Shown here in pieces: positions 4,086-64,000 of a DNA stretch of 64,000 nt; position 1 is the first letter of the stretch; each line of letters starts with the position of its first letter. The stretch lies in contig CAYZUL010000005.1 of NCBI GenBank assembly GCA_964481895.1, positions 942 through 64,941 on the forward strand. Reading direction: 5' to 3'. Origin of the DNA: an uncultured Nitrospirota bacterium (GTDB lineage: Bacteria > Nitrospirota > Nitrospiria > JACRHA01). The notes beneath the pieces are model-generated. The model had not been told where the DNA came from. It ran no database searches and saw only the letters and a list, made by a program, of their open reading frames with translations. The position numbers and the translations under genes were made by a program.

Positions 4086-4102
4086 TCGGAAAGATTGTAA
4101 GT

Positions 4103-4179: not shown

Positions 4180-4183
4180 AAGA

Positions 4184-8644: not shown

Positions 8645-8729
8645 AGATGTCAGAATCTAAAAGGAGATTCCAGGGGTGGAGGATCTTTTCTGCCCTAAAA
8701 TGTATCTCGTTTGCAGCTATGTGGCAATG

Positions 8730-17108: not shown

Positions 17109-20100
17109 ATGGATAACATGGACAATAAAGAGCAATATAAATCCTTTTTAAAGGAGCATTATCCCTTTAATTTAATTCCTGATCAAATTGTTAATGATCT
17201 GATCTCCTGCATCAAGGAAGAGCATTATGGCACAGGCCAGACTATTTACCGAAAGGGTGAAGATGGGGGCATCTTTAGTATTATCCGTACTGGTGAGGTG
17301 TACGAATTAATTACGGACAAGAATGGGGAGGAGATTATCGTTTCGCTTCTCCGCGAGGGGAACTGTTTTGGCGCGATATCTGTATTAACAGGCGAGCCCC
17401 ATTCAGTAACAACAAGGGCAAAGGGGGATGTGGAGCTATTTGTCATAGAAAGGGGGGATCTGGAGGCATTGCTCTCCCGCCATCCCTCCCTCAATAAATA
17501 TCTGACACGGATCCTCACTGAGAAGATAAGAAACCTATTCCTCTTCTTTGAGACAGAAGGGATAAGGGTATTTGAAAAGGCAAGGAGCATAGATGAGAAG
17601 GAGAGGGAGATCTCATTTCTCAACAGGATTACCAACCTGATCGGTTCTAAGGAGGATTATGAAAAGCTCCTTGATACCATAGTCAGCGAGGTCCGGGGAT
17701 ACACGGGTGCAGATGTATGCTCTGTCTATCTGCTGGATCCGATAACAAACGAACTGATTCTGGAGGCGGCAGACGGTGTAGGGGAGGGGATGGTAAGAAA
17801 GATAAAGATGGATCTCTCCCAGGGGATCACCGGATGGGTTATCCGGAATAGCGAGCCCGTTGCAGTATATGATATCCATAAGGATCCCAGGGTGCATATT
17901 ATCTCTGATATCCAGGAGGATAGGTTAAAGTCGCTTTTATCCCTGCCTCTTGTCATAAGGGGGAAAAGCATAGGCGCACTCAACCTGGCTAATGTGAACT
18001 ATAGGGACTATTCATATAATGATATTCAGAGCATGGGGATTATTGCCAATCATATAGCCATGGCTATCTCAAATTTCAGATTGCGGAAGAGGATATTTGC
18101 CGCCACTGGAGTTTCAAGTTCACGATTGGGCGGGCTGGATCATTTTGTCGGTGAAACAAGTTATGTGAGGGGCATAAACAGATTTATAGATCTGAATGCA
18201 CAGTATGACGGGCATGTCCTCTTAAAAGGAGAAGAGGGGACGGGGAAGCATCTCCTGGCATCGCTGATTCATAGAAGGAGCAGGCGGGCAAAGGGGGCTT
18301 TTATAACAGTAGACTGCGAATCAATCCGAAAGGAATCGTGGGGAGAAGAGCTCTTTGGTGATGACCGGGATCCATCATCGGGTGAGATTTCGTTCGGGTT
18401 TCTTGAACTGGCCCATGGCGGGACTATCCTCTTGAGAAATATAGAGTCGCTTAATCAGGCGAATCAGATAGCCATCTACAAGTTCCTGAACGACGGGCGG
18501 TTTGTCCGGGTGCACGGACACGATACGATCTACTCAAACACCAGGGTTATTGCCACTGTTAATGGAGACACAAAGACTGATGACAGGATAGATCTGAACA
18601 AGGAACTTTATGATCTTCTATCAGCAAACTCATTTTCTATGGTACCCCTCAGGAAGATGCGTAAGGACATACCTGTTCTTTCCACACACCTCTTAAAAAA
18701 TATCAATGACGAACTCCATAAAGGGATCATGGAGATATCAGGGAACGCCATGGAGAGACTTTTGAGCTATGACTGGCCGGGGAATGTTCTTGAGCTTGAG
18801 AACGTCTTGAGAAGGGCGGTAATCCTTGCCAATGAGGGAACGATACTCTCCAATCAGATATTTTTCGGCATCCCCAGGATAGAGAAGAGATGGGAGTTTA
18901 ATCTGTTTTCAATAGAACCAATAAAAAGATTTTTCTACACAACTCGCCTTCAAAAGGGGGTCCAGGTCGCAGCCATAATAATCATGTTTTTTGTAATCTA
19001 CTCCCTCATCTCGCATAAAGGGACTGGATATAGTCTCACAAATATCATGCTATGGTCTTTCGGTTGGTTCGGCCTTTTTGTCTCTGCCTTCTCTATCGGG
19101 AGGATATGGTGCGCTGTGTGTCCATTTTCAAGTTTCGGGGAATTTCTTAAAAGGATAAAGCAGAAGAAGATTCCGATCCCAAGCGATGCGGGCAAAAGGA
19201 GCGAGAAATACCTTGTCGGACTGATACTCCTTGTGCTTTTTGCAGAGGGTATCACTGTGATGCCTGCCGTTCCATTCTATACAGGACTGCTTATACTATT
19301 TATACTGATCGGGGCCATAGTATCTTCAATCCTTTATGATAAGAGGGTCTGGTGCCGGTACCTATGCCCGCTTGGCGGATTATTAGGGATCTACTCCCTT
19401 GCGTCCTTTGTAACGATAAAGGCTAACAGAAAGCTCTGTTTGAGTCAGTGCACGACACATGAATGTTATCTCGGCAGGGATGGGATGGAGGGGTGTCCAA
19501 TGCTCCTTCACCCCTATGGTGTTGAAAACAGCCAGAACTGCACCCTTTGCGGCAGTTGCGTCAGGGCATGCGGGCACAACTCGCTTCGCCTTTCCCTCCA
19601 CCTCCCGACTACGGGGGTAGAGGATATAGATATATTCAGCCTCCCCTTTTCATTTCTTGCCTCTGCCCTGGCAGGAATTTTATTGGTAGAGAACGGCTCC
19701 ATACTTTCAAGGACGTCATCCTTGTTTAGATACATAAATGATATAATAAAGATAGATCCAAACATCCTCTATGCAATAGTTTTCATTGGAGTAATGACTC
19801 TCCCTTTTCTGTTAATTATCTCCTTAGACCTATTGATGAACAGATGGTCTAAAGAGGGGATAAAGGAGTACCTTGCCAATCTGCCTTACTCTTTCATGCC
19901 TCTTGCTTTGCTTGGGCATATAGCCCTCTATGGGAAGGAGCTTATCTTAGATCTGCCAAAGATTGGTAATATTGTCATGGAAAGGATAGGGATTACGATG
20001 ATATTCCCGCCTGTAGGCGTAAAAGGTCAGACATGGGTGGAGATATTGCAGGTACTCCTTGTTGTCTTTGGTGCGGCAGAGAGTATATACCTTCTTTTCA

Positions 20101-20219
20101 GGATCTATAAGAAATCAGAACATAAGAACCTGCCAAAGAGGAGGACATTGCCGATCTATGTCGGGATGATATTGTTCTTTGCGGTCATCTATATGGTATC
20201 GTTCCTTGGTATGTCATAA
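17109..20219 (+). CDS. Unusual fusion: cNMP-binding + GAF + sigma54-interaction AAA+ domain (degenerate GAFTGA, no HTH) + NapH/CcoG-like membrane polyferredoxin
   Basis: Single 1036-aa ORF. A CAP-type cNMP-binding domain sits at aa 20-140 and a GAF domain at aa 170-320. The AAA+ domain has Walker A GEEGTGKH, but the loop where GAFTGA is expected reads DPSSGE. The last ~430 aa have about 8 TM helices with two NapH-type CxxCP/CxxxCP motifs (CAVCP, CRYLCP) and 4Fe-4S motifs (CTLCGSCVRAC; CLSQCTTHEC). Confidence 0.8.
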   Translation: MDNMDNKEQYKSFLKEHYPFNLIPDQIVNDLISCIKEEHYGTGQTIYRKGEDGGIFSIIRTGEVYELITDKNGEEIIVSLLREGNCFGAISVLTGEPHSVTTRAKGDVELFVIERGDLEALLSRHPSLNKYLTRILTEKIRNLFLFFETEGIRVFEKARSIDEKEREISFLNRITNLIGSKEDYEKLLDTIVSEVRGYTGADVCSVYLLDPITNELILEAADGVGEGMVRKIKMDLSQGITGWVIRNSEPVAVYDIHKDPRVHIISDIQEDRLKSLLSLPLVIRGKSIGALNLANVNYRDYSYNDIQSMGIIANHIAMAISNFRLRKRIFAATGVSSSRLGGLDHFVGETSYVRGINRFIDLNAQYDGHVLLKGEEGTGKHLLASLIHRRSRRAKGAFITVDCESIRKESWGEELFGDDRDPSSGEISFGFLELAHGGTILLRNIESLNQANQIAIYKFLNDGRFVRVHGHDTIYSNTRVIATVNGDTKTDDRIDLNKELYDLLSANSFSMVPLRKMRKDIPVLSTHLLKNINDELHKGIMEISGNAMERLLSYDWPGNVLELENVLRRAVILANEGTILSNQIFFGIPRIEKRWEFNLFSIEPIKRFFYTTRLQKGVQVAAIIIMFFVIYSLISHKGTGYSLTNIMLWSFGWFGLFVSAFSIGRIWCAVCPFSSFGEFLKRIKQKKIPIPSDAGKRSEKYLVGLILLVLFAEGITVMPAVPFYTGLLILFILIGAIVSSILYDKRVWCRYLCPLGGLLGIYSLASFVTIKANRKLCLSQCTTHECYLGRDGMEGCPMLLHPYGVENSQNCTLCGSCVRACGHNSLRLSLHLPTTGVEDIDIFSLPFSFLASALAGILLVENGSILSRTSSLFRYINDIIKIDPNILYAIVFIGVMTLPFLLIISLDLLMNRWSKEGIKEYLANLPYSFMPLALLGHIALYGKELILDLPKIGNIVMERIGITMIFPPVGVKGQTWVEILQVLLVVFGAAESIYLLFRIYKKSEHKNLPKRRTLPIYVGMILFFAVIYMVSFLGMS

Positions 20220-36421: not shown

Positions 36422-37216
36422 ATGGGTTTGCAGGGCAAAGAGATTTCATCAATGAAGGCCGCAGTAAAGGCGTGCCATTTGTGTGGGGCCTCTATTACCG
36501 GTCTCCCCTTTGTCCGCAAAGGGGAGGTCTGCTGTTGCGAAGGGTGCCTCCTTAAGGAAAAAGAATTCCGGGCGATCAAGGCTGAGAGGGACAACGCCTA
36601 TTTAGCCCTGGCAGAGGCCCTGGTGGCGGCCTTGGATACCAGGGAGCATGAGACAGGCCTCCATTCCAAACGTGTTGCCTGTCATACGCTGGTGCTTGCA
36701 AGACGGTTCATAAGTGAGCAAGACATCTTGCGTCAGGTTTACTGGGGCGCGCTGCTGCACGATATAGGCAAGATTGGTATCCCGGATACGATCCTCATGA
36801 AGGAGGGGTCTCTGACTGACAGTGAGTGGATAGAGATGAGGAGGCACCCTGAGATCGGCTACGATATTCTGAAGCCCGTCCCGTTCCTGACCGGGGCAGC
36901 GGAGATGGTAATAACTCATGAAGAGCGGTACGATGGCGCAGGCTATCCTCGCGGCCTTAAAGGGGAGGGCATCCCTTTTGGGGGCCGGCTCTTTGCTGTT
37001 ATTGATGCTCTGGATGCCATGACCTCAGATCGGCCTTACCGGAGGGGTTTGTCCTTTGATACGGCCAAAATGGAGATTCTCCGCATGTCCGGTACCCAGT
37101 TTGATCCAAAGGCAGTGGAAGCCTTCCTTGCGGAAGAGCCTACCCTCCGGGAAATGGTAGACTTAAAGTGCGGGGATGTGCAGCTTGATCCCGGAATATC
37201 TAAGAAGGGAGGATGA
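36422..37216 (+). CDS. HD-GYP domain c-di-GMP phosphodiesterase with N-terminal Cys-cluster (TRASH/YHS-like) domain
   Basis: HD ([12 protein letters not shown]) and GYP ([14 protein letters not shown]) motifs; the N-terminal cluster reads [25 protein letters not shown]. Start set to the internal ATG at 36422 because the track ORF start (36350) overlaps the upstream gene. The stop overlaps the copA start. Confidence 0.7.
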
Positions 37217-39546
37217 TTATGGCCATAGATCCTGTATGCGGCATGACAGTGGATGAGGAAAAGGCAGTGGGCAGGTCCATTCATGAAGGGACTACCTATT
37301 ACTTCTGTTCCACGCAATGTCTTGGCAAGTTTGAGGCCAATCCCTCCGGTTTTACCCTGTCAGCATCGCATTTGGCAAAGGCGAAGGAGGGAATCCATAC
37401 TATGCCGGTAACAGAGGCCAAATCCTCCAGGGGGATGGCCAAGGATCCCATTTGTGGCATGGTGGTCGATAAGGCGACCGCGCTCAAAACAGAGCAGGGC
37501 GGCCGTACCTATTATTTCTGCAGCGTAGGATGCCTGCACACCTTTGAATCCCCTGAGGCTGAGCTTAAGTCAATGCGGAGACGCGTAATGATTGCCCTTA
37601 CAGGGGTCCTTGCCCTGGCAATATTACGGGCCGCCGCCTTCCTGGCGCTGGCGGCCGGAGCCACAATCGTCACCTGGGCGCCCATTCCACAACTCCCCTG
37701 GTTCACATGGGGGATGTGGCTTTTTATCCTGGTAACACCAGTTCAGTTTATCGGTGGCTGGTCTTTCTACGTAGGAACATGGAATGCTATTCGCACCAGG
37801 ACAATTAATATGGACTTCCTGATCGCCCTTGGTACGACCGTTGCTTACATTTATAGCGTGGCCGTAATATTTTTTCCCTGGGTCTTGCCGATCAAGGTTG
37901 AGGAGCGTGATGTCTATTTCGAGGTCTCTGCCGTCATTATTGCTTTTGTACTCCTGGGTAAATACATGGAGGAGATAATCAAGAAACGCTCCTCTGCGGC
38001 CGTTAGAAAGCTCTTGGATTTAAAACCGGCCACGGCCCGGGTGATCCGGAATAATACTGAGATGGAGATTCCTGCGGAGACCCTGATGGTGGATGAGATC
38101 GTTGTTGTGCGCCCTGGGGAGAAGATTCCGACTGATGGGGTCGTCCAGGAAGGGTCCTCCTCAGTGGACGAATCGATGCTGACCGGCGAATCAATGCCAG
38201 TGGAAAAAAGGCCTGGGATAGAGGTAATCGGCGGCACGCTGAACAGGACGGGTATGTTCCGGTTTAGGGCTACCAGGGTGGGGGCAGATACGGCCCTGGC
38301 CCAGATCATTAAAATGGTAGAGGAGGCGCAGGCCAGCAGTGCGCCGATCCAGCGGCTTGCCGATCAGGTTACCGGCTATTTTGTTCCGGCCGTGGTAGGG
38401 GTGGCCTTCCTTTCCTTTGTCATCTGGTGGCTCCTGGGCAATTTTCCCCAAGGTCTCCTCTCCTTTATTGCGGTGCTCATCATATCATGCCCATGTGCCT
38501 TAGGCATTGCCACGCCGGCAGCGCTCATGGTTGGTGTCGGCAAGGGCGCCGAAGGGGGCATCCTAATCCGGGGCGGTGAGGTGTTGGAACGTGCCCAGAA
38601 GCTAACAGCAGTGGTCTTCGACAAGACCGGGACATTAACCCGCGGGGAACCTGATGTTACCGATATTATCCCGTTTTCTGAATTTCCTGAATCTGAAATT
38701 CTAAAGTCTGCTGCTGCCGTTGAGGCAGGCTCGGAGCATCCACTGGGTGAGGCGATTGTCCGAATGGCCAACCACAGGGGACTTGATCTTTCAAAAGTTA
38801 TTGAGTTCGAGGCCCTCCCTGGCCATGGTATCAAGGGGGTGATTGATGGTCATCGAATTCTCTTGGGCAACCGGCGACTGTTCAGAAAAGAAGGTATCGA
38901 ACTTACAAAAGCGGAAGAAATAATGACGCGCCTTGAATCGGAGGGGAAGACCGCCATGCTGGTGGGCCGAGAGGGTAAATTGATTGGCGTCATTGCAGTT
39001 GCTGATACCCTCAAGCCTGAAGCAAAGGAGGCCGTTGCTTCCCTCCGGGACGAAGGGGTAGAAGTCATTCTCCTTACCGGCGATAACCAGCGTACTGCCA
39101 ATGCCATAGCGAAGGAACTCGGGATCAAACTGGTCATTGCCGAAGTCCTGCCGGGCGACAAGGCGCAGGTTGTAAAGGATCTTCAGAGGCAGGGCAAGAT
39201 CGTAGCCATGGTAGGAGATGGCGTTAACGACGCCCCGGCGCTGGCGGCAGCCGATATTGGTATTGCCATAGGCTCCGGTTCAGATGTAGCCAAAGAGACA
39301 GGAGGGATAATTTTAATCAGGAATGATGTGCGTGATGTGGTGTCCGGCATACGCCTCTCCCGCGCCACCATGCGAAAGATCAGACAGAACCTCTTCTGGG
39401 CCTTTATTTATAATAGCGTGTCTATTCCGGTGGCGGCCCTCGGTTTTTTAAACCCGATCATAGCCGCAGCAGCGATGGCTTTAAGTTCGCTCTCCGTGAT
39501 TGTAAACTCGGCGTTATTGAAGCGGTTAAAGTTTTCTGCAATGTGA
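37213..39546 (+). CDS. copA: Copper-translocating P1B-type ATPase with two N-terminal YHS/TRASH domains
   Basis: 777 aa; two YHS motifs (DPVCGMTVD...YYFCSTQC and DPICGMVVD...YYFCSVGC), the CPC transmembrane metal site ([11 protein letters not shown]) and DKTGTLT / GDGVNDAP motifs. Confidence 0.9.
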
Positions 39547-39596: not shown

Positions 39597-41450
39597 TTGG
39601 AAATAAAAGAGCAGCAGCTCTCCCTCTGGTACTTCCTGGTTGCCTTCTTGATCCTGTTGACCATACAGAATTTTCTTTTAACGCCTCACCTTGAAAACCT
39701 CTCTTATAGTGATTTCAAGGTTCTCCTGAAGGCTGGGAAGGTGGATAATCTGACCCTTAAGCAGCGTGTTATCTCAGGTACGCTGAAAAAGGAAGGACTG
39801 GAAGATATCCTTCCTAAAGAGAAGATTGAAGAGCTTCAAAGGATTAGTAAGGGGGAGCATCGCTTTATCACGGTCAGGGTGGATGACCCATCCTTAATCC
39901 AGGAACTTGAGGCAGCTAAAGTGCGCTTTGCCGGCCAGGTGGAGAGCACCTGGTTTTCGACCATCCTCTCCTGGGTTATCCCAGCCGTTATCTTCTTTGC
40001 ATTATGGATCTTGCTAATGAAAAGGATGGGGGCAGCCAGCGGCATCATGGAGATAGGCAAAAGTAAGGCCAAGGTCTATATGGAAAAGCAGACAGGGGTG
40101 TCCTTTAATGATGTTGCTGGGGTGGATGAGGCGAGAGCTGAGTTGATGGAGGTGGTGGAATTCCTGAAGAACCCTCAGCGCTATCGACGCCTGGGCGGGA
40201 AGATCCCGAAAGGGGTCCTCCTGGTAGGTGCACCTGGGACAGGGAAGACCCTCATGGCCAAGGCAGTGGCCGGAGAAGCGGGGGTTCCCTTCTTTAGCAT
40301 AAGCGGGTCGGAATTTGTAGAGATGTTCGTAGGCGTTGGTGCGGCGCGGGTACGGGACCTTTTCGCCCAGGCCGAAGGAAAGGCCCCTTGCATCATATTT
40401 ATTGATGAGCTTGATGCCCTAGGCAAGGTGCGCGGATTTAATCCAGTTGGCGGGCATGATGAGCGGGAGCAGACATTAAACCAGCTATTGGTAGAGATGG
40501 ATGGGTTTGATACAAACAAGGGGGTCATCATAATGGCTGCAACCAACAGGCCGGAGATCCTGGACCCGGCCCTGCTCCGGCCCGGGCGATTTGACCGGCA
40601 CGTTGCCCTTGACAGGCCGGATCTAAAAGGAAGGGAAAAGATCCTCCATGTCCATAGTAAAGCCGTTAAGCTATCGCCAAAAGTCGATCTCTCTGTCATT
40701 GCCGCCAGGACCCCGGGGTTTGTAGGGGCGGATCTTGCCAACCTTGTCAATGAGGCCGCATTGTTAGCTGCCCGCAAAGGTAAGGATGCAGTAGAGATGG
40801 TTGATTTCGATGACGCGATAGACCGGATCATTGCAGGACTAGAGAAAAAGACGCGGGTGATGAATCCGAAGGAGAAGGAGACCGTTGCCTATCACGAGGC
40901 TGGTCATGCCATAATTGCCGAATCCCGTCCGCACGTAGACCGGGTTTCAAAGATCTCCATCATTCCCCGTGGTGTTGCCGCATTGGGGTATACACAGCAG
41001 CTTCCCACGGAGGACAGATATCTTCTTAAGAGGACAGAACTGCTTGATCGGCTCGATGTGCTTCTTGGAGGCAGGGTGGCCGAGGAGATTGTTTTCGGTG
41101 ATGTCTCTACCGGGGGCCAGAATGACCTCCAGCGGGCCACAGACTCGGCGCGCCATATGGTAACACAGTATGGGATGAGCGAGCGCCTTGGCTTGGCCAC
41201 ATTTGAAGAGCCGCGCACCTCTCCCTTTTTAAATATCCCTATGCCCCAGGGCCAGAGGGAATACAGTGAAAGGACAGCCCAGGCTATCGATGAAGAGATC
41301 CAAAAGCTCTTAAAGGAATCCCACGCGCGCGTCAACGAGACATTGATTTCAAAACGCTCTATGATGGATTCCCTGGCAAAACTTCTCCTTGAAAAGGAGG
41401 TGGTCGACCGGCTAACCCTGGATAAACTAATGGAAACAGATAGAGAATGA
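39597..41450 (+). CDS. ftsH: ATP-dependent zinc metalloprotease FtsH, paralog A
   Basis: 617 aa; AAA Walker [12 protein letters not shown] region, HEAGH zinc motif; TTG start with a GGGGAGGA RBS. Confidence 0.9.
40108..41326 (+). repeat. 1,219-bp block 100% identical to 55066..56284 (ftsH paralog core)
   Basis: Direct comparison of the two ftsH copies: the flanks are about 80-85% identical, the central block is perfect, and one SNP marks each boundary (40107/55065 and 41327/56285). Confidence 0.85.
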
Positions 41451-54554: not shown

Positions 54555-56435
54555 ATGGAAAAGAAACAGAAGGAGTTTTCGCTCTGGTACTTCGTAATCG
54601 CCTTCCTGATCCTGATAGCCATTGAGAATTTTCTGTTGTCCTCCCACCTTGAAAACCTCTCTTATAGCGATTTTAAGGTACTATTAAAGGCAGGAAAGGT
54701 GGAGGATCTAACCATTAGAGAAAAGGTTATATCGGGAAAGCTGAAGAAGGAGGAGCTAGAGGGGCTCCTCCCTAAAGAGAAGGTAGAGGAACTTCAAAGA
54801 CTCGGTAAAGGGGAGTATCACTTTATTTCGGTCCGGGTGGATGACCCTTCGTTAATACAGGAGTTGGAGGCAGCGAAGGTGCGCTTTGCCGGTCAGGTGG
54901 AGAGCACCTGGTTCGGGAGCCTCATGTCGTGGGTTTTGCCCGCAGTAATCTTCTTTGCCCTCTGGATCTTTTTTATGAAACGGATGGGTGCGGCAAGCGG
55001 TATTATGGAAATTGGCAAGAGTAAGGCCAAGGTATATATGGAAAAGCAGACAGGGGTGTCCTTTGATGATGTTGCTGGGGTGGATGAGGCGAGAGCTGAG
55101 TTGATGGAGGTGGTGGAATTCCTGAAGAACCCTCAGCGCTATCGACGCCTGGGCGGGAAGATCCCGAAAGGGGTCCTCCTGGTAGGTGCACCTGGGACAG
55201 GGAAGACCCTCATGGCCAAGGCAGTGGCCGGAGAAGCGGGGGTTCCCTTCTTTAGCATAAGCGGGTCGGAATTTGTAGAGATGTTCGTAGGCGTTGGTGC
55301 GGCGCGGGTACGGGACCTTTTCGCCCAGGCCGAAGGAAAGGCCCCTTGCATCATATTTATTGATGAGCTTGATGCCCTAGGCAAGGTGCGCGGATTTAAT
55401 CCAGTTGGCGGGCATGATGAGCGGGAGCAGACATTAAACCAGCTATTGGTAGAGATGGATGGGTTTGATACAAACAAGGGGGTCATCATAATGGCTGCAA
55501 CCAACAGGCCGGAGATCCTGGACCCGGCCCTGCTCCGGCCCGGGCGATTTGACCGGCACGTTGCCCTTGACAGGCCGGATCTAAAAGGAAGGGAAAAGAT
55601 CCTCCATGTCCATAGTAAAGCCGTTAAGCTATCGCCAAAAGTCGATCTCTCTGTCATTGCCGCCAGGACCCCGGGGTTTGTAGGGGCGGATCTTGCCAAC
55701 CTTGTCAATGAGGCCGCATTGTTAGCTGCCCGCAAAGGTAAGGATGCAGTAGAGATGGTTGATTTCGATGACGCGATAGACCGGATCATTGCAGGACTAG
55801 AGAAAAAGACGCGGGTGATGAATCCGAAGGAGAAGGAGACCGTTGCCTATCACGAGGCTGGTCATGCCATAATTGCCGAATCCCGTCCGCACGTAGACCG
55901 GGTTTCAAAGATCTCCATCATTCCCCGTGGTGTTGCCGCATTGGGGTATACACAGCAGCTTCCCACGGAGGACAGATATCTTCTTAAGAGGACAGAACTG
56001 CTTGATCGGCTCGATGTGCTTCTTGGAGGCAGGGTGGCCGAGGAGATTGTTTTCGGTGATGTCTCTACCGGGGGCCAGAATGACCTCCAGCGGGCCACAG
56101 ACTCGGCGCGCCATATGGTAACACAGTATGGGATGAGCGAGCGCCTTGGCTTGGCCACATTTGAAGAGCCGCGCACCTCTCCCTTTTTAAATATCCCTAT
56201 GCCCCAGGGCCAGAGGGAATACAGTGAAAGGACAGCCCAGGCTATCGATGAAGAGATCCAAAAGCTCTTAAAGGAATCCCACGCCCGTGTCAAGGAGACA
56301 TTGATCTCAAAACGCTCCATACTGGAATCCCTGGCAAAGCTCCTCCTTGAAAAGGAGGTGATTGACCGTGCGACGCTTGACCATCTGCTGGAGACACAGA
56401 GGAATGCTGTCGTGATAACAAAAAAAGGAGTCTAA
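54555..56435 (+). CDS. ftsH: ATP-dependent zinc metalloprotease FtsH, paralog B
   Basis: 626 aa; same motifs as paralog A; the central 1,219 bp are identical to paralog A, while the N- and C-terminal regions are diverged. Confidence 0.9.
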
Positions 56436-56987: not shown

Positions 56988-57326
56988 GTGATAAGCATGA
57001 AGAGATCAATCATGTTTTGTTTTATGGGAATAGTCCTTATTGGCATGGCAGAATGCACGTTAGTGCTTGCCGCAGGACCTGAGACTGAAAAGGGAAAGAT
57101 GTTATACGAAGGGAAAAAATGTGGTCTTTGCCATGCCATTAATGGAAAGGGCGGCAAGAAAGGTACTGATCTATCTGATACTGGTAACAAAAGGGACGCG
57201 GGATGGCTGATGAAGTACTTGAAAGATCCAAAAGGGACCTTGCCTGGCGCTAAGATGATGCCTGTTAAGGCCTCTCCGGAAGAACTATCGGCGCTTATTG
57301 ATTACATGTTATCGCTTAAGAAATAG
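56988..57326 (+). CDS. Periplasmic monoheme cytochrome c (class I)
   Basis: 112 aa; signal peptide, CGLCH heme-binding motif, distal Met candidates (KMMPVK). Confidence 0.75.
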   Translation: MISMKRSIMFCFMGIVLIGMAECTLVLAAGPETEKGKMLYEGKKCGLCHAINGKGGKKGTDLSDTGNKRDAGWLMKYLKDPKGTLPGAKMMPVKASPEELSALIDYMLSLKK

Positions 57327-57375
57327 GAGAGACTTACCGATTTATATAAAAGACACTATAGAGCGGAGGTTACAA

Positions 57376-58596
57376 ATGGACGTACGATTTCTTTCCAAGG
57401 GTTTATTATGGTTTTATGTGTTCATTTTTATTTCCATATTTTTTGAGGCCTTATATCCCGCCAAGGCCCATGCCATTCCGGCCTTTACCAGAAAATATAA
57501 TGCAGACTGCTCTATGTGCCACTATCCAAATCCACCCAGACTTAATTCCTTTGGACAGGAATTTCGCCGGGCAGGCTTCAGGACACCGGATGAATTCAAT
57601 AAAGATCAGGACATTTCCAAGGTCGGGGACTTCTTGTCTGTTCGTGGCAGGGCCCGCTATGAATATGTAAACCCTGAAGGAAAGCCCGTCGAGAGCCAGT
57701 TTAAATGGAATGACACTACATTCTTTTATGCAGGGGCCTTGACCAAAAATCTAACCTCTTTTACTGAATTAGAAGTTGCGCCAGAAGGAAAGGAAACTGA
57801 GGTGGAGTTGGTGGCCTCCATCGGAGGGGTCTTCGGACAGCCGGATCATTACTCTACTTTCAGAGTGGGACAGTTCCATGCTTTGACACGGGTAGGTTTT
57901 GGGGGGTTCGATCGGCCAACAGGGATCAGCACGGCCTCTGCCCTCTCTTCAGATCTCACCACAGGAGGTGTCCCTTTTAAGATCAACACAGACCAGAGGG
58001 GACTGGAATTAACCCATGTCTTCAAAAAATCCAGGATGATCGCCCAGATCCTAAATGGAATAGATGAGGGGGGGAAGGGGACGGTGGATGACACCAATAC
58101 TGCCAAGGATTATTCCATTGCCTATGAAAGGATCTTAGATGACCTGGCATCAGGCTTTACCATCTATGGTTACTGGGGTAGCTGGTTTAATAACGATGAC
58201 CCAGCACTAGGCCAGAGGGCCGGGTTTGCACGGTATGCATTAACGGGAAACAAGATCTTCCCTGGTATCCTCGCCGGAAATTTTGAGGTAATGGCAGGTT
58301 ATGTGCGAAGCCAGGATGCTGCGCCTTCTTCACTCGGCGGGAATGTCCAGGGCAATGCCTTCTTTGTGGAAATCGAGGATTATTTTGAGCCTCATAATTT
58401 TACTCTCCTTGTCAGATACGATTTCATTGATCCCGAAGATGATACCGGAAATGACAGGAAGGAGAAATGGACTATAGGTTATGTCCGGACATTTCAAAGT
58501 TACTTGAGGCTGGCAGTGGAGGCAAATACATCACGAGACGACAAAAAAGATACAACTGATTACGGCGTAACAGGGGAGCTTATGATTAACTTTTGA
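57376..58596 (+). CDS. Cyc2-like fused monoheme cytochrome c / outer-membrane porin
   Basis: Start set at the ATG at 57376, which has a GGAGG RBS at 6-nt spacing; the track start at 57298 overlaps the upstream gene. Signal peptide ...PAKAHA, then a CxxCH (ADCSMCH) about 15 aa into the mature protein. The remaining ~370 aa show an amphipathic beta-strand pattern and end ...GELMINF. Confidence 0.6.
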   Translation: MDVRFLSKGLLWFYVFIFISIFFEALYPAKAHAIPAFTRKYNADCSMCHYPNPPRLNSFGQEFRRAGFRTPDEFNKDQDISKVGDFLSVRGRARYEYVNPEGKPVESQFKWNDTTFFYAGALTKNLTSFTELEVAPEGKETEVELVASIGGVFGQPDHYSTFRVGQFHALTRVGFGGFDRPTGISTASALSSDLTTGGVPFKINTDQRGLELTHVFKKSRMIAQILNGIDEGGKGTVDDTNTAKDYSIAYERILDDLASGFTIYGYWGSWFNNDDPALGQRAGFARYALTGNKIFPGILAGNFEVMAGYVRSQDAAPSSLGGNVQGNAFFVEIEDYFEPHNFTLLVRYDFIDPEDDTGNDRKEKWTIGYVRTFQSYLRLAVEANTSRDDKKDTTDYGVTGELMINF

Positions 58597-58639: not shown

Positions 58640-59359
58640 ATGAACTTAAGGACTCAGGGTCTGCCCGTTAAGATCCTCTTTACCTGTTTTCTCGGCACCA
58701 TCGGGATCGCTTATCTCTCTGCCATTACCTATCTCTTTTTAATAGATATTGAGCCGCATGCCAAAGGTAATTTGGGTATAGTCCACGCCGTGATTATCAA
58801 GTATTATGGTCAAAGGGGGACTACCCGGCTGGAAGCAGCCCTGGATGGGGGCATGGGTGAAAATATCACCCCTGCCCAGAAAAAACAGATCTCTGAATGG
58901 ATCCGTAAAGGGGCGCTTCCATCAGGTTTTGAATCGATAAAACCAATCTTTCTTAATAACTGCACTGTTTGCCACAGCAAGGAGTCGGGCATGCCCATTT
59001 CTCCACTTACCAGCTTTGATGAGGTGGCCGCCTATACCCAGATTGATATAGGCCAATCAGTAAAAAGCCTGGTGCGCGTATCACATATACATCTCTTCGG
59101 GATGAGCTTTCTCTTCTTGCTTACAAGCTGGATCTTTGTACTGAGTGAAATTGCCGTCAAATGGCGCGCCATCCTGGTATCGGTCCCTTTTGCAGCCATC
59201 TGGATAGATATAGGATCATGGTGGTTTACAAAATTTGAGCCCCTTTTTGCCTATTCAGTAATCGCCGGAGGTGCCTTGATGGGTCTCTCTCTGGCAGCGC
59301 AGATCATAATTTCACTCTGGGAGATGTGGCTTAAGGAAGGGAAAATAATAGAGGTCTAG
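58640..59359 (+). CDS. Four-TM membrane protein with a c-type heme-binding loop (CTVCH)
   Basis: 239 aa; TM1 then a soluble loop containing NNCTVCHSKESGMP, then three further TM helices. No family recognised. Confidence 0.5.
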   Translation: MNLRTQGLPVKILFTCFLGTIGIAYLSAITYLFLIDIEPHAKGNLGIVHAVIIKYYGQRGTTRLEAALDGGMGENITPAQKKQISEWIRKGALPSGFESIKPIFLNNCTVCHSKESGMPISPLTSFDEVAAYTQIDIGQSVKSLVRVSHIHLFGMSFLFLLTSWIFVLSEIAVKWRAILVSVPFAAIWIDIGSWWFTKFEPLFAYSVIAGGALMGLSLAAQIIISLWEMWLKEGKIIEV

Positions 59360-59394: not shown

Positions 59395-59889
59395 TTATTT
59401 ATGAATATGCTCCTCTGCTTTTCCCCCATGGGAGAAGGTATGGGTATAGGCGATCACCTTCCAGATCTGATCTTCTTTGAGTTTCCCCTTCCATGGCGTC
59501 ATCGGGGTTTGCGGCACTCCTTCTGCGGTCCGCCAATACATATAACTATCTGTCATCTTACTTACATATTCTGCATCCCTGAGATCACGCGTACCAGTCA
59601 GAAGAGGCCTTCCATCACGTCCATGGCATGCAGCACATACCACATCCGGATCTACCATCCCATCATAGATCTTTTTCCCTTCAGTGATCACCTTGGGATC
59701 TGTCCACCATCCTTTCGGCATATGTTTGTCCTCGTATTCCTTAGGAATCTTGTCCAATGCCGGCATCTTGGGCTTCTCGCCGAACGCCACCATCATTGTA
59801 AAAAAGACAATCAGAAAAGATATTCCGATCATACATAGGTTTCGCATCTGTCGCCCCCTTTTATAAAAAGCCCATTTTAAAGACCTCAT
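59395..59889 (-). CDS. Membrane-anchored monoheme cytochrome c
   Basis: 164 aa; N-terminal signal anchor and a CAACH heme motif. The alternative start at 59847 has a better RBS (GGGGG). Confidence 0.7.
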   Translation of the reverse strand: MRSLKWAFYKRGRQMRNLCMIGISFLIVFFTMMVAFGEKPKMPALDKIPKEYEDKHMPKGWWTDPKVITEGKKIYDGMVDPDVVCAACHGRDGRPLLTGTRDLRDAEYVSKMTDSYMYWRTAEGVPQTPMTPWKGKLKEDQIWKVIAYTHTFSHGGKAEEHIHK

Positions 59890-59914: not shown

Positions 59915-60709
59915 TTAGTTTCCCTCTTTTTTGGGTGGAAAGATAGGTTTTGGCGAATTTCCTGCCGGATCTTTAAGGGACATGAGATATGCTACTAGTG
60001 CGTCCCGCTCCACTTCGCTCATAAGTCTAGGATAATTTTCCGGCATCACCACCTTCTTGTACTCATTTTCAAACCCTTCGGCATACCATGCCATGGGGTC
60101 CCAGAGTTTATCTTTTAATTGCCCGGCCATAAGCAGATTGCCGATATTGTCCAGCGCAGGCCCCCGGCGCTTCACTCCCCCTTTTCCGCCAACCTTGTGG
60201 CAATTATAACACTCATAGTCTTTGTACACCTGTTTTCCAAAGGCGATCTGTTTTGCAACGTTTTCTGCTAGAGCAGGCCCGCCGGGGGGAATCTTTTTGG
60301 TCGCTCGGGTCATACCTTCCTTTTCCAATTCTGCAAGGAGTTCTTTCTTGGCGGCCTCGACTGCTTCGGTTATGGCCGTTTTTTCCTTCTCTTTCTCCTG
60401 CTCGATAGTCATATGCTGGATCCGCCGGATTTTTTCTATCTCGATCCCTGGATCATACTGTGGGAGCAACATACCTGCAAGGGTTATTATGAACGATGCG
60501 GCGAGAAAGAAGGTGGCGATTGCAAGAATAGGGCTTTTCGGCAGGCGCATGGCCTTAGCATCAAGGAGCAAAAAGAATGAAAACCCCAACAGCACATAAC
60601 CTACGAAGAAGATCCTGAAGATAACAGGGAAACCAACCCAACTGCTGCCCGACCATACTACTGTACTCAAAATCAGGGTCCAGACGAGTTTGTATCTCAA
60701 CCTCTTCAT
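59915..60709 (-). CDS. Membrane-anchored (3 TM) monoheme cytochrome c
   Basis: 264 aa; three N-terminal TM helices, a coiled-coil linker (EQEKEKEKTAITEAVEAAKKELLAELEKE) and a C-terminal cytochrome-c domain with CYNCH. Confidence 0.7.
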   Translation of the reverse strand: MKRLRYKLVWTLILSTVVWSGSSWVGFPVIFRIFFVGYVLLGFSFFLLLDAKAMRLPKSPILAIATFFLAASFIITLAGMLLPQYDPGIEIEKIRRIQHMTIEQEKEKEKTAITEAVEAAKKELLAELEKEGMTRATKKIPPGGPALAENVAKQIAFGKQVYKDYECYNCHKVGGKGGVKRRGPALDNIGNLLMAGQLKDKLWDPMAWYAEGFENEYKKVVMPENYPRLMSEVERDALVAYLMSLKDPAGNSPKPIFPPKKEGN

Positions 60710-60720: not shown

Positions 60721-62280
60721 TTACGAATCGCCGCCTTCAATTCGCACCTTTAATGCTTTTGTCCTTCCAAGACCCAGACTGATCCAGATGCAGAATCCGA
60801 TCATCAGGAAGAATAAAAGGGAGATCAAAGTCACCAAGAGGCTGGACCATGCAAGGGTTGGTGTGTAAGCATCCGGGGTCATATCCTTCATGAGGATATA
60901 GATATGGAAATGCTTTCTTCCCAGGGAGCGGACAGCTCCCATAAGGCCCATAGTCCAGATTGCGGCAAAGGCAAGGAAGATCAAGGCATACTGCGATGCC
61001 GGGTCAATTTTACCCCATTGGATGGTCCCCCGTCTGATGGAAACTCTATACAATATATAACTCATCAAGACCACTGCAATGCTCAATCCAGCAGCTATAT
61101 TTTTGATCGGCATCAGCGCCATAAAACCTAGATGAGAGGGGAGTTCCATCTGTGTTACGTACTTGTCGGGATCTGCACCTTCCGGAAGGGCTCCTGGATC
61201 CAATATCATGGTGGCAAAGAAATGCCTTGGTGTCATCCAGATGGCATTGCAGATCAGGATCAGCACAAACCCGGCCCTGATAAGGGGTGCAAAGCGTTCC
61301 GCACCGGTGATCCTTTTCATAGAGAGCCAGATATAGTAGTTGCCGGCAAGATACATAAGACCGATTAGAATCCCCTGCATCTCATAGAACATTGAAAGCC
61401 TGTCGGACATCATATAGATCCCCAGGGAGGCATCATATTGATAAATTTCATAGCCATAGAGATAGCCTGGAAAAGCCAGAAGCATGAAGGTAACAAGACC
61501 GATCAGGTTGCCTATAAATCCCATCCAATCATAGAAGATCCGATCTTCATCGGTCTTAGATGTCATGTACATTACGGCAGCGATTAGACAGACAATGAAT
61601 CCACCGAAGGCCACATTGGATATAAAGCGGTGGATGTTAAGCGGCCACCAGGTAAAATTGTTCATCAACTCCCACAGTGTGGCCTTTTCATAATCTTTTA
61701 CCGGTGTATTCATAAAGCTGGTGACGGCATTCATGAGGAACATTACGGCTGTCCCAGTGATATTCAGTAATACCCCGATGGCAATATGAAAACCTTTACG
61801 GTATTTAAGCACATCCCAACTGTATAAATATGTGTACATCAATAGTGACTCTACTATGAATAAAATTGGATAGAAGATAATCCAGAGGGGGAAAAAGTAG
61901 GTCATGAGAAATGTGGAAAGCTTCGGATAAAGGGCAATTAGCAGCAGCGTAAAGAGCCCTCCGGTCAGGGCGGTAAGGCTGTAAGCCACAGCGGTGACCC
62001 TCGTAACCTCCCTGGCCAGGCGCTCATATCGATGATCCTTTTTCTTATAACCGATATATTCGCATATTACCACAAAGATGGGGGCACCTAAGATGAAGGC
62101 AGCAAAATTGAGCATTAGTTGGGCAGCAATCCAGATCACGGTTCGATTACTCACGTAGGGAAGGGTAACCTCTTTGTATTGAATTACCTCTTCTGCTCCA
62201 TAAACAACCGTAGTGGTTGCGGCCAGTGAAATCACTGCCAGTAAAATGGCCGGTTTGCGCAGAGATATCAACGATGCCAT
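60721..62280 (-). CDS. Cytochrome bd-like oxidase subunit (CydA homolog, no Q-loop, no adjacent cydB)
   Basis: 519 aa with about 14 TM helices; collinear with CydA helices. The conserved Glu region reads FPILFIVESLLMYTY, and NITGTAVMFLMNAVTSFMNTP corresponds to N..SALWILVANGWMQNP. The canonical heme His ligands are not all conserved. Confidence 0.65.
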   Translation of the reverse strand: MASLISLRKPAILLAVISLAATTTVVYGAEEVIQYKEVTLPYVSNRTVIWIAAQLMLNFAAFILGAPIFVVICEYIGYKKKDHRYERLAREVTRVTAVAYSLTALTGGLFTLLLIALYPKLSTFLMTYFFPLWIIFYPILFIVESLLMYTYLYSWDVLKYRKGFHIAIGVLLNITGTAVMFLMNAVTSFMNTPVKDYEKATLWELMNNFTWWPLNIHRFISNVAFGGFIVCLIAAVMYMTSKTDEDRIFYDWMGFIGNLIGLVTFMLLAFPGYLYGYEIYQYDASLGIYMMSDRLSMFYEMQGILIGLMYLAGNYYIWLSMKRITGAERFAPLIRAGFVLILICNAIWMTPRHFFATMILDPGALPEGADPDKYVTQMELPSHLGFMALMPIKNIAAGLSIAVVLMSYILYRVSIRRGTIQWGKIDPASQYALIFLAFAAIWTMGLMGAVRSLGRKHFHIYILMKDMTPDAYTPTLAWSSLLVTLISLLFFLMIGFCIWISLGLGRTKALKVRIEGGDS

Positions 62281-62302: not shown

Positions 62303-62863
62303 TTAGAAGAGGGGATGAAATGCTACGCCGAATTGGCCAGGTTCAATAGACTCTGTATCATGTCCGAAGATCTTCCATTCCCCCTCTTCATGGATCAGAT
62401 AATGAACCTCATCGACCCAACCATCAATCCGCTCCTTCTTTCCGGTGCGTGTATTTATGCCGAATACTAAACCGGTACACACAATATATGCCATACGTTT
62501 GGACCGATCAATATGGATCCGATTGAAGGTATGGCCTATAAGTAGTTCCTTATAATCCTGGAAAAGCCTGGTCCAGACCTTTCTTATTTCATTCCGGTCT
62601 GCCCCTAGGTGGGCATAGTTCTTTGAATATGAATTCATCAGCCCATTGAGATTCTTTGATTGGATAGCTTTGTCCGACTTCTCAAAGGTTGACATAAGTT
62701 CCTTAACCTCTTCCGGGAGGGCATGTATCTCGGCATTCTTACCTATGACTGTTTCGGCCATCAGAGGCCCAATAGACCAGAGAATTAGAAATAAAATAAA
62801 AAGTATAATAAAGAATGACCTGCCGGTCGTAAGGCAGGAATTAGGTTTAACATCTAATGTCAT
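62303..62863 (-). CDS. Membrane-anchored hypothetical protein (NTF2/SnoaL-like fold suspected)
   Basis: 186 aa; N-terminal TM anchor; co-directional with and 23 nt upstream of the bd-like oxidase gene. Confidence 0.4.
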   Translation of the reverse strand: MTLDVKPNSCLTTGRSFFIILFILFLILWSIGPLMAETVIGKNAEIHALPEEVKELMSTFEKSDKAIQSKNLNGLMNSYSKNYAHLGADRNEIRKVWTRLFQDYKELLIGHTFNRIHIDRSKRMAYIVCTGLVFGINTRTGKKERIDGWVDEVHYLIHEEGEWKIFGHDTESIEPGQFGVAFHPLF

Positions 62864-62903: not shown

Positions 62904-63104
62904 TTATTTAAACGTCTTAATATAAGCGATCAGATCTTCCATGTCCGTCTTTTTAAGAACACCTACATTCAATCTCGAAGTGCAACATATGCAACCTCGA
63001 GGGGCGTTTTGTAGTCCTGGCATTGACGCCTCCTTACTTACTTTTAATATTATCCCATGAATTAGATTAATACAACCTGGAGCAAGATCTCCACATCTTT
63101 TCAT
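62904..63104 (-). CDS. Hypothetical small Cys-containing protein (uncertain)
   Basis: 66 aa ORF with four Cys (CINL...CICC); no family recognised and coding status uncertain. Confidence 0.2.
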   Translation of the reverse strand: MKRCGDLAPGCINLIHGIILKVSKEASMPGLQNAPRGCICCTSRLNVGVLKKTDMEDLIAYIKTFK

Positions 63105-63367: not shown

Positions 63368-64000
63368 ATGAACGTTAAAGTAATTGGAGTTTTGTTATTA
63401 GCATTGATGTTTTTAGTCAGTCCTGTAATCTATGCCCAGATGATGGGTGATGGGATGATGAAGGGTGGCCAGATGGCGGCCGAAGGGGAAGAAGAGGGTC
63501 AGATGCCCCAGATGCCGATGATGCATGGGATGATAAATCGGGTGATGGAGATGATGCAGGAGATGATGGAGGGCATGAGAGGTATGGCCCAGGATGAACC
63601 GACAAAGGAAAAGATGGATGGGATGATGATGGAGATGGACGAGATGATTAAACAGCATGAGGCGATGATGGAAGGGATGATGTCTGGTTCAATGATGGGA
63701 CGCTCTGATGAGATGAAGCCTGTCGAAAAGATGAAAGGGACTATGTCTTCTGCGACACAGAAAAATAGCGGCGGCGGGGTGACAGTAGAAGCGACCCTGC
63801 TAAATCCAAAGGATATTGATGAGAGGGTCACCTTCAGTCTTAAGTTCGATACGCACAGTGTAAACCTCGATGAATATGACCTGGCAAACATCTCACACCT
63901 TAGGGATGACCTTGGAAGGGAACTGCATGGGCCTGTCCTTGAAAAAGCTGAAGGAAGCGGACATCATCGGAGCGCGATAATATCCTTCTCAAATAAGAAT
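63368..64000 (+). CDS. Met-rich periplasmic protein, putative Cu/Ag-binding (paralog B), partial at window end
   Basis: ATG at 63368 with an AGGAGG RBS; the translation MNVKVIGVLLLALMFLVSPVIYAQMMGDGMMKGGQ...MPMMHGMINRVMEMMQEMMEGMRGMAQD...GGGVTVEATLLNPK... parallels the 42350 ORF. It is absent from the ORF track because it runs off the window. Confidence 0.7.
   Translation, partial: MNVKVIGVLLLALMFLVSPVIYAQMMGDGMMKGGQMAAEGEEEGQMPQMPMMHGMINRVMEMMQEMMEGMRGMAQDEPTKEKMDGMMMEMDEMIKQHEAMMEGMMSGSMMGRSDEMKPVEKMKGTMSSATQKNSGGGVTVEATLLNPKDIDERVTFSLKFDTHSVNLDEYDLANISHLRDDLGRELHGPVLEKAEGSGHHRSAIISFSNKN

Follow-up and report, generated by a model that had tools for sequence, protein, structure and literature searches.

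An OR-N1-type bd-like cytochrome with methionine at a nearly universal heme-ligand position, encoded with two cytochromes c in an uncultured Nitrospirota bacterium

The 64,000-bp stretch of DNA analyzed here (“the window”; positions 942 to 64,941 of contig CAYZUL010000005.1, GenBank assembly GCA_964481895.1) originates from an uncultured Nitrospirota bacterium and carries, close to its end, a gene for a bd-like cytochrome of 519 amino acids (aa), a homolog of CydA, which is subunit I of cytochrome bd. The protein is no oddity but a member of the named subfamily OR-N1, and its gene resides in an operon together with genes for two cytochromes c. At the position of His19 of Escherichia coli CydA, a nearly universal heme ligand, the alignments place a methionine residue, Met56. 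This most unusual feature of the protein is peculiar to a small clade and was missed by an earlier note made on this DNA. We lean, with moderate confidence, toward reading the operon as a cytochrome c-oxidizing terminal module with O2 as the most likely acceptor.

The protein is not new as a kind, because it belongs to an already described and named, biochemically uncharacterized subfamily. New here is the evidence for an OR-N1 branch that stands alone with its own cytochromes c, the clade-specific replacement of His by Met at a nearly universal heme ligand as deduced from the alignments, and the repeated placement of the bd-like gene behind an arsenite oxidase or a related molybdenum (Mo) enzyme in relatives and, in this genome, beside a Cyc2-type module. 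The operon is composed of four genes on the minus strand, which are separated by 22, 11, and 25 nucleotides (nt). In the order of transcription, these are:

Positions 62303 to 62863, minus strand: 186-aa protein, a single helix at the N terminus, SnoaL/NTF2-like domain weakly matched (Pfam SnoaL_3 at E = 0.006, which is below the cutoff)

Positions 60721 to 62280, minus strand: OR-N1-type bd-like cytochrome, CydA homolog, 519 aa (open reading frame [ORF] with an ATG start, Pfam, PDB searches, alignments, AlphaFold, Foldseek)

Positions 59915 to 60709, minus strand: membrane-anchored monoheme cytochrome c, 264 aa (Pfam Cytochrom_C, E = 1e-10)

Positions 59395 to 59889, minus strand: cytochrome c, 164 aa, starting with an anchor or signal and containing a CAACH motif (Pfam Cytochrome_CBB3 and Cytochrom_C)

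Pfam model Cyt_bd_oxida_I (PF01654) matched residues 51 to 282 of the bd-like protein with profile positions 8 to 240 of 418 (E = 6.4e-20). The sole match of phmmer among all PDB sequences was CydA of Geobacillus (5DOQ_A, residues 49 to 194, E = 7e-11), and a profile built from 70 homologs matched five CydA structures and no other structure. An AlphaFold model calculated from a 70-sequence alignment reached a predicted local distance difference test score (pLDDT) of 87.4 and a predicted template modeling score (pTM) of 0.85. When the PDB was searched with this model by Foldseek, the top ten matches were CydA chains from E. coli bd-I and bd-II, mycobacteria, Corynebacterium, and Geobacillus (E = 1e-7 to 6e-6, TM-score of 0.5 to 0.7), and CydB chains ranked below them as much weaker matches. 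The bd-like protein is a CydA homolog, as the earlier note had claimed and as Pfam, the PDB searches, and Foldseek bear out, with recognizable sequence homology confined to the first six helices. The aligned span in the hhalign comparison with E. coli CydA comprised only residues 53 to 282, and the collinearity with CydA that had also been claimed holds for the N-terminal half (residues 51 to 282), with no confident alignment beyond.

Homologs of the bd-like protein were found in large number, more than 1,700 at E < 1e-5 and 853 cluster representatives at E < 1e-3 (50% clustering). Those with a name belong to Nitrospirota, Nitrospinota, Chloroflexota, Methylomirabilales, and one anammox metagenome-assembled genome (MAG), and the nearest public genome is the groundwater Nitrospirae MAG JACRHA010000180.1 (96% protein identity, partial gene). 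The bd-like group was first noted in Nitrospira in 2010. These proteins were described as “cytochrome bd-like oxidases” with about 14 helices, an N-terminal part aligning with CydA, retained heme b ligands, and membrane helices in place of the Q-loop (Lücker et al. 2013, PMC3578206). The superfamily comprises qOR, OR-C, and OR-N, the latter with the subfamilies OR-N1 and OR-N2 of about 14 helices each (Murali, Gennis & Hemp 2021). The OR-N enzymes are proposed to be cytochrome c-oxidizing O2 reductases, which probably take their electrons from cytochrome c, and OR-N1 plus OR-N2 are proposed to form a CydAA' complex, for which experimental confirmation is lacking (PMC12342949; PMC10839748). The statement of the earlier note that such bd-like oxidases are biochemically uncharacterized agrees with this OR-N literature.

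The bd-like protein was 47 to 48% identical to bd-like_1 of Nitrospira moscoviensis (NITMOv2_0732) and 36% identical to bd-like_2 (NITMOv2_0737), which is the proposed terminal oxidase of this bacterium. The respective cluster of N. moscoviensis contains, in this order, the genes for a cytochrome c, a bd-like protein, a cytochrome c, a Rieske protein, a cytochrome b, a 323-aa protein, and the second bd-like protein, and the best match was the product of the first bd-like gene, which is bd-like_1 by the locus tags. The key residues of bd-like_1 are H50, G102, I105, Y131, E138, Y145, Y147, H160, T174, T182, and H220, 10 of 11 in agreement with the OR-N1 reference of Table S6 of Murali et al. after a shift by two positions, the exception being E138, where the table has G140. 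The protein from the window matches in part the OR-N1 reference pattern (H52, G104, Y133, Y147/Y149, H162, T176, T184, and H222; Murali et al. 2021) with G108, Y137, Y151/Y153, H165, T187, and H217 at matching spacing, and deviates from it by M56 instead of H52 and V179 instead of T176. On the basis of identity and residue pattern, the protein is assigned to OR-N1 as an ortholog of the Nitrospira bd-like_1. An assignment to OR-N2, first prompted by the cytochrome c-rich context and the conserved E107 equivalent, was rejected after the N. moscoviensis ortholog turned out to be bd-like_1, with residues that match the OR-N1 reference. The glycine listed as G140 at the E107 position of OR-N1 in Supplementary Table 6 of Murali et al. 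differs from the glutamate found in all examined OR-N1-type sequences that cover this column; a mistake in the table or an unusual reference sequence may be behind this.

The heme ligands and other important residues of CydA were mapped with a MAFFT alignment of 117 full-length homologs plus E. coli CydA, with the phmmer alignment to 5DOQ, and with an hmmalign alignment of 270 family sequences. The C-terminal half could not be aligned to E. coli CydA by profile-profile comparison, so that the equivalents of Met393 and Glu445 rest on MAFFT plus topology reasoning. The His186 ligand of heme b558 in E. coli corresponds to H217, invariant in all homologs covering this column. The second b558 ligand, Met393, aligns one residue away from the invariant M390, which is located at the periplasmic start of the helix corresponding to that of Met393; judged by this position, M390 is probably the Met partner of H217 at a b558-like heme. 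Both Glu107 and His126 of the proton channel have invariant counterparts, E144 and H165, respectively, and Glu99, a proton channel residue near the heme, is replaced by the invariant tyrosine Y137. Trp441, near the third heme, is W442 in the bd-like protein and Trp in 119 of 120 homologs, with a Tyr in the remaining one. Glu445, the ligand of the third heme, aligns in MAFFT with L446, near the conserved W442 and R455 and at low alignment confidence, and the helix harboring L446 contains no glutamate. Lys252 and Glu257, the quinol-binding residues of the Q-loop, fall into a gap in the protein and in 117 of 117 homologs. E144, H165, H217, M390, M447, and R451 are unchanged in all of the 117 to 120 close homologs covering them, and M444, M447, R451, and H459, on or just after the helix of L446, are conserved across OR-N proteins including bd-like_2.

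With this map, the ligand statements of the earlier note were only partly upheld. The Q-loop is absent, as predicted, and a segment of the type N..(W/F)M(Q/N).P is present as “MNAVTSFMNTP”. Conservation of the Glu-rich helix holds for the Glu107 equivalent, but not for that of Glu99. The loss of several His and Met ligands is true for His19 and for Glu445, which is a residue other than Glu, but the b558 His is kept and its Met partner probably so. The alignment to CydA structures that the note had proposed yielded neither the full set of canonical ligands nor a Q-loop, with the C-terminal half only weakly aligned, and no cydB is located immediately beyond the bd-like gene.

The assignment of Met56 to the position of His19 (His19/His21) was obtained in agreement by phmmer, MAFFT, and hhalign. 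The column contains His in 219 of the 227 family sequences that cover it, namely in 115 of 118 close homologs and 104 of 109 distant representatives. Methionine is present in the protein from the window, in its three closest database relatives (P0001 to P0003, 80 to 83% identity), and in a contig from Hainich groundwater (L085), and the column deviates from His in four further, scattered representatives (Pro, Pro, Phe, and Tyr). A compensating histidine was not gained in the Met clade. According to these alignments, the clade departs from the published rule of His19 being maintained in all CydA paralogs (Murali et al. 2021). The heme at this site may be tuned to a higher potential with catalysis retained. 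Alternatively, the site may have been turned into a redox center that does not bind O2. At the S140-equivalent position, V179, the Met clade has Val and the close relatives have Thr; as a sign of lost catalysis, this T179V exchange was dismissed as weak, since hydrophobic residues are common in this column across OR-N proteins. The Met clade also possesses additional methionines at positions 148, 266, 378, 464, and 467, which are Leu-to-Met or Phe-to-Met exchanges, three of them in predicted periplasmic loops.

The AlphaFold model starts with a hydrophobic N-terminal helix (residues 2 to 27) ending with VYG/AEE, which resembles a signal peptide or an anchor, followed by 12 helical segments at residues 45 to 80, 83 to 117, 119 to 153, 162 to 191, 211 to 240, 244 to 267, 269 to 290, 293 to 321, 327 to 349, 389 to 417, 428 to 453, and 476 to 503. 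Topology was deduced from the charge distribution in the loops by positive-inside reasoning, which suggests that 11 of these 12 segments cross the membrane in addition to the N-terminal helix, instead of the approximately 14 transmembrane helices of the earlier note. The segment from 269 to 290 is amphipathic and probably located at the periplasmic surface. Residues 293 to 321 and 327 to 349 may form an inserted helical hairpin, and residues 350 to 388 a predicted acidic periplasmic loop, modeled with low confidence, while the last three helices appear to retain the topology of CydA helices 7 to 9. The region from 268 to 388 consists of helices and a loop unrelated to the Q-loop. These approximately 120 residues in place of the Q-loop are predicted to face the periplasm, and would be the obvious candidate for a docking surface for cytochrome c.

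The gene for the 264-aa cytochrome c starts 11 nt after the bd-like gene. Its product, in which hydrophobic helices at the N terminus are joined by a charged linker to a CYNCH domain at the C terminus, is the small membrane-anchored protein that the earlier note had seen in place of CydB. The gene for the 164-aa cytochrome c follows after 25 nt as the last gene of the operon. Both cytochromes yielded partial matches to NCBIfam models of the c-type subunits of cbb3 oxidases. The NTF2-like gene, 22 nt upstream of the bd-like gene, is probably the first gene of the operon; a homolog with 69% identity occupies the same position in the Met-clade locus L085, and it is absent from the other loci examined. 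A 66-aa ORF further upstream (positions 62904 to 63104, minus strand) encodes a cytochrome c-like C-terminal helix (EDLIAYIKTFK) devoid of a CxxCH motif; it may be the remnant of a cytochrome c gene, because an intact cytochrome c gene is located upstream of the NTF2-like gene in L085. A scan of the operon region for promoters and terminators gave results at chance level and was not used.

To examine synteny, 80 loci of species-representative genomes were searched by tblastn with the operon proteins. Where the flanking sequence sufficed, the bd-like gene adjoins homologs of both cytochrome c genes in most loci and a homolog of the 264-aa cytochrome c gene in nearly all related loci, and the trio is conserved in Chloroflexota, Methylomirabilia, Nitrospirota, Nitrospinota, and one gammaproteobacterium. 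In two loci (L092 and L093), both cytochromes c are fused into one diheme protein of 392 to 395 aa, which suggests that the two cytochromes act together. The membrane cytochromes c are the likely redox partners, in line with the earlier note.

A cydB gene or a second cydA-like gene was not found in the window when CydA and CydB of E. coli were compared by phmmer with 56 selected ORFs (all E > 0.1, except for the bd-like protein itself, and all E > 1 for CydB-like proteins), so that the absence of cydB noted before was confirmed for the window, with cytochrome c genes downstream of the bd-like gene. The seven largest other multihelix membrane proteins in the window all belonged to unrelated Pfam families: an MFS transporter, an M48 peptidase, an MscS channel, a sigma-54 activator with Fer4_5, a copper P-type ATPase, a MacB/FtsX permease, and an ICMT-family methyltransferase. 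No cydB was present in about 90 related loci either. Among 27 loci that are 50% or more identical to the bd-like protein, several of them with 10 kb on each side, only 1 has a second cydA-like gene in the fetched flanks, versus a second paralog about 4 kb downstream in 47 of 61 Nitrospira-type loci. In this branch, the OR-N1 protein therefore seems to function with no OR-N2 partner encoded next to it. Rieske/cytochrome b (petABD-like) genes are absent from the window; Rieske and cytochrome b genes are present in the Met-clade relative L082, after the cytochrome c gene, and in the Nitrospira loci.

The relatives offer candidates for the electron source. AioBA, the arsenite oxidase, reduces cytochrome c or azurin. 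In the loci L092 and L087 (66% identity), the bd-like gene directly follows a full set of genes for AioB and AioA, with 160 bits on TIGR02694 (cutoff of 96) and 1,061 bits on TIGR02693 (cutoff of 359), respectively. The arsenite oxidase is preceded by an AioXSR-type trio of a periplasmic binding protein, a histidine kinase, and a sigma-54 regulator, and locus L007 displays the same arrangement of AioBA followed by the bd-like gene. No other gene for a terminal acceptor is present within the 10-kb flank on either side in L092. At positions 2305 to 12687 of L092, and also in L087 and L007, the AioXSR-like trio, AioBA, the OR-N1 gene, and the fused diheme cytochrome c stand in a row, which looks like a self-contained arsenite-to-acceptor operon. 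A literature search found no paper that links arsenite oxidase to bd-like proteins or that describes such an operon.

In 12 other loci, the bd-like gene is positioned behind the genes for a Tat-exported Mo-bis(pyranopterin guanine dinucleotide) enzyme of 879 to 892 aa, an iron-sulfur subunit with four clusters (200 aa), a monoheme c subunit (145 to 158 aa, CMRCH), and a TorD-like chaperone. These loci include L093 of Methylomirabilales, several from Chloroflexota, two from Nitrospirota, a Nitrospinota MAG, and L082 and L083 of the Met clade. The Mo-enzyme sets just upstream of the bd-like gene are located as follows:

L082, positions 1255 to 6149: Mo-enzyme gene set

L093, positions 5625 to 10008: Mo-enzyme gene set

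L002 to L006, L008, L010, L013, and L083: further Mo-enzyme gene sets

In the Met-clade loci, a gene for an ArsR-type regulator is inserted, and the regulators of L093 are 64 to 74% identical to those of the Aio locus. The enzyme could not be assigned to Arx or Arr, because the diagnostic motifs are absent and formate dehydrogenase, Nap, and Psr outranked ArrA when PDB and NCBIfam were searched; it is an unclassified periplasmic molybdoenzyme.

In the window, the bd-like operon is convergent with a Cyc2-type module:

Positions 56988 to 57326, plus strand: small monoheme cytochrome c of the periplasm, 112 aa, immediately upstream of the Cyc2-type gene (Pfam Cytochrom_C, E = 9e-10)

Positions 57376 to 58596, plus strand: Cyc2-type fused monoheme cytochrome-porin, 406 aa from the ATG at 57376 (motif, AlphaFold, Foldseek)

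Positions 58640 to 59359, plus strand: membrane protein, 239 aa, with one CTVCH motif, third gene of the Cyc2 module (ORF, hydropathy)

The published criteria for Cyc2 proteins are a signal peptide, a motif before a single CXXCH, a PXL motif after it, a length of at least 365 aa, and a 16-strand barrel. The published consensus is AXPXFAR[Q/K][T/Y]...CXXCH...PXL (Keffer et al. 2021, PMC8406198). The 406-aa protein contains a signal peptide and then AIPAFTRKY-NAD-CSMCH-YPNP-PRL, with one deviation from the consensus, a T for an A; the consensus of its family is AIPAWARKY. Its AlphaFold model (pLDDT of 88) is a 16-strand barrel, which Foldseek matched to 16-strand porins including OprP and OprO. 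By these features, the protein classifies as a Cyc2-type fused cytochrome-porin. Cyc2 is a candidate Fe(II) oxidase, or a candidate Mn(II) oxidase in Manganitrophus. The homolog of the 239-aa membrane protein that follows Cyc2 in locus L089 carries the Pfam domain Aq_1264_TM (PF27139). In locus L090, the Cyc2 module is located beside an MtrB/PioB porin and a NiFe hydrogenase. Comparison of positions 3040 to 3246 of L009, a 96%-identical groundwater MAG, with positions 57011 to 58556 of the window revealed two deletions, corresponding to positions 57395 to 58556 (most of Cyc2) and 57011 to 57187 (the heme-binding core of the cytochrome c); the bd-like operon beside these deletions is intact in L009.

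The four-helix core that binds heme in cytochrome bd subunit I is retained in the bd-like protein, which would function without CydB. From the residue map and the gene context, we infer that hemes are bound, in which direction electrons flow, and that O2 is the acceptor. Periplasmic or outer-membrane oxidases of inorganic substrates would reduce c-type cytochromes; the candidate here is the neighboring Cyc2 chain, and in relatives, AioBA or the unclassified molybdoenzyme may be the electron source. The two anchored cytochromes c would pass the electrons to a b558-like heme held by His217 and probably Met390. From there, the electrons may proceed to an active-site heme in the bundle of helices 1 to 4, which in this clade would be ligated by Met56 instead of His, and this heme would reduce the terminal acceptor, most likely O2. 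Glu144 and His165 are conserved where the proton channel of canonical cytochrome bd has two of its residues.

The reading as a cytochrome c-oxidizing terminal module is the best supported. The genomic contexts share an oxidase of inorganic substrates in the periplasm or outer membrane that reduces c-type cytochromes, which is followed by the bd-like/cytochrome c module and no other acceptor. Several points weigh against it. No OR-N enzyme has been purified, and O2 reduction by these enzymes is unproven (PMC12342949; PMC10839748). A Met in place of the His19-equivalent ligand could abolish or change the O2 chemistry, and the number of hemes is not fixed by the sequence because the Glu445 ligand is absent. 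Homologs occur in lineages regarded as anaerobic, for instance, in an Anammoxibacter MAG (P0082) and in Thermodesulfovibrionia (L024). The connection of the operon to Cyc2 is an adjacency in this genome only and suggestive at best, because the module occurs without a bd-like neighbor in L089 and L090, both with the pairing of cytochrome c and Cyc2, and because L009 lacks Cyc2 and the small cytochrome c's core through deletions, which is either a strain-level loss of the module or an assembly artifact. Finally, the DNA visible upstream of the operon amounts to 1.7 kb, and the rest of the genome is outside the stretch analyzed.

Some of these points could also mean that the protein is not an oxidase at all but an electron-transfer module between cytochrome c and the quinone pool, comparable to alternative complex III or operating in reverse electron transport, with the Met56-ligated heme as a six-coordinate or otherwise non-O2-binding redox center. 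For Nitrospina, Nitrospira, and anammox bacteria, such a function of their bd-like proteins has been brought up as a possibility (Lücker et al. 2013, PMC3578206). It would agree with the presence of the family in anaerobic lineages, with the His-to-Met exchange that removes the canonical ligand of the O2-reducing heme, with the Val at the S140-equivalent position in the clade, where close relatives have Thr, and with the Rieske/cytochrome b complex encoded right after the cytochrome c gene in L082; proof of a Met56 site that does not bind O2 would favor it. However, the quinol-binding K252 and E257 of the Q-loop are absent and no alternative quinone site was identified, an oxidase fits better to the AioBA-linked L092 without another acceptor gene in its 10-kb flanks, and the equivalents of E107 and H126, which belong to the canonical proton pathway, are strictly conserved. 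The Val is weak support, as hydrophobic residues are common at this position across OR-N. A quinone-linked function is judged unlikely, albeit worth keeping in mind.

The protein may alternatively be one half of a heterodimeric CydAA'-type oxidase with an OR-N2 (Nide0901-like) partner encoded elsewhere in the genome, as in the complexes of OR-N1 and OR-N2 published as proposals for Nitrospirales and Nitrospinota. The paralog downstream in most Nitrospira-type loci (47 of 61) points in this direction, as does the location of the canonical His19 and its heme at the subunit interface, but with no second cydA-like gene in the 64-kb window or in 26 of the 27 loci that share 50% identity or more, and with Aio-linked and Mo-enzyme-linked operons that look self-contained, this is quite improbable. 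Even less can be said for a decaying or inactive paralog, which no longer binds the active-site heme and persists as a remnant or scaffold. It would explain why an otherwise near-universal His was lost and why the neighboring Cyc2 module is variably present among close relatives. On the other side, Met56 is common to five sequences from different samples with 80 to 83% identity to the bd-like protein and with the other invariant residues kept, the reading frame is intact in four of these five (L085 was represented by two overlapping tblastn segments), and the operon partners are retained. A change from His to Met requires at least two nucleotide changes, and Met itself is a competent heme ligand, leaving only a very small chance for decay. 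Public annotation pipelines call the homologs “cytochrome ubiquinol oxidase subunit I”, which would make the protein a canonical quinol-oxidizing subunit with cydB beyond the window. This is almost certainly wrong: the missing Q-loop and the OR-N1 residue pattern refute it, His19 and Glu445 are not conserved, only the N-terminal half can be aligned, the conserved partners are cytochromes c, and cydB is missing from about 90 related loci.

The Met56 clade might represent a functionally distinct enzyme of the bd family, either a Met-ligated O2 reductase or a bd fold without O2 reduction, in a lithotrophic module without CydB or CydA'. This is a tentative proposal, possible but rather doubtful. 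If true, it would be the first bd-type oxygen reductase with a Met-ligated catalytic heme, with a redox tuning for high-potential cytochrome c donors that are reduced by electrons from Fe(II) or As(III), or else a bd-fold protein turned to another reaction or to pure transmembrane electron transfer. In either case, it would be the built-in terminal module of arsenite- or iron-oxidizing lithotrophic operons. Nitrite oxidizers of global importance (Nitrospira, Nitrospina) and manganese oxidizers are assumed to rely on OR-N bd-like proteins as their main terminal oxidases, and none of these proteins has been purified. The locus described here and its relatives are a simpler test system than the Nitrospira loci, with a four-gene operon, a single bd-like subunit, and two cytochromes c, and the module of the relatives is wired directly to arsenite oxidase. 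The natural His-to-Met variant is a ready-made probe of whether the active-site heme performs oxygen chemistry.

Other genes of the window were also recorded. Upstream of the bd-like operon, a gene that runs off the end of the window (positions 63368 to 64000, plus strand) encodes a secreted protein with 16% methionine (MMGDGMM, MPQMPMMHGM, GMMMEMDEM), resembling copper-binding Met-rich proteins, and the copper-type P-type ATPase with YHS domains is encoded at positions 37213 to 39546. Two full-length FtsH paralogs are located within 15 kb (positions 39597 to 41450 and 54555 to 56435, both on the plus strand); between the second FtsH gene and the Cyc2 module, directly upstream of the latter, is a universal stress protein gene. 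The sigma-54 activator is an unusual enhancer-binding-protein fusion of 1,036 aa (positions 17109 to 20219, plus strand), in which cyclic nucleotide monophosphate-binding, GAF, and sigma-54 activator domains are joined to a C-terminal multihelix Fer4_5 membrane domain.

Compared to canonical CydA (E. coli bd-I, 6RKO; Geobacillus thermodenitrificans, 5DOQ), the bd-like protein has a homologous core of helices 1 to 6, retains the equivalents of His186, Glu107, His126, and Trp441 together with the N..(W/F)M(Q/N).P segment, and has a similar fold in the model (TM-score of 0.5 to 0.7). It differs by the missing Q-loop and quinol-binding residues, by cytochromes c as partners in place of CydB and CydX, by Met for His19, Tyr for Glu99, and a residue other than Glu at Glu445, and by inserted extra helices. 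To the cbb3-type cytochrome c oxidase (CcoNOP), there is a functional analogy only, since in both cases, anchored mono- or diheme c subunits would feed a membrane-bound catalytic subunit, and the partner cytochromes partially match CcoO/CcoP-type models. The catalytic subunits are unrelated, a bd-type fold versus a heme-copper oxidase, and no copper site is evident in the bd-like protein.

The closest known systems include the OR-N1 subfamily, for example, bd-like_1 of N. moscoviensis, with 47 to 48% identity over the full length and a common key-residue pattern (G, Y, E, Y-x-Y, H, T, H). Both proteins are without a Q-loop, both are flanked by two cytochrome c genes, and both are biochemically uncharacterized. 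In contrast, the protein from the window is about 60 residues shorter, has Met at the His19-equivalent position, is not accompanied by Rieske/cytochrome b genes or an OR-N2 paralog nearby, and has the NTF2-like gene upstream and the Cyc2-type module adjacent to its operon; the longer Nitrospira proteins have more helices than the 12 segments plus N-terminal helix of its model. With the OR-N2 proteins (Nide0901-like, bd-like_2), it shares the helix Y-x6-E-x6-Y-x-Y and the C-terminal M-x2-M-x3-R and His motifs, but these are 36% identical to it, have another spacing of the key residues, and are usually encoded beside an OR-N1 gene. The OR-C1 bd-like enzymes of Desulfobacterota, Acidobacteriota, and others are, like the bd-like protein, without a quinol site and are thought to take their electrons from heme c. 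In these OR-C enzymes, the CydA-like protein itself carries the heme c motifs, whereas the 519-aa bd-like protein contains no CxxCH motif and its hemes c are carried by separate proteins.

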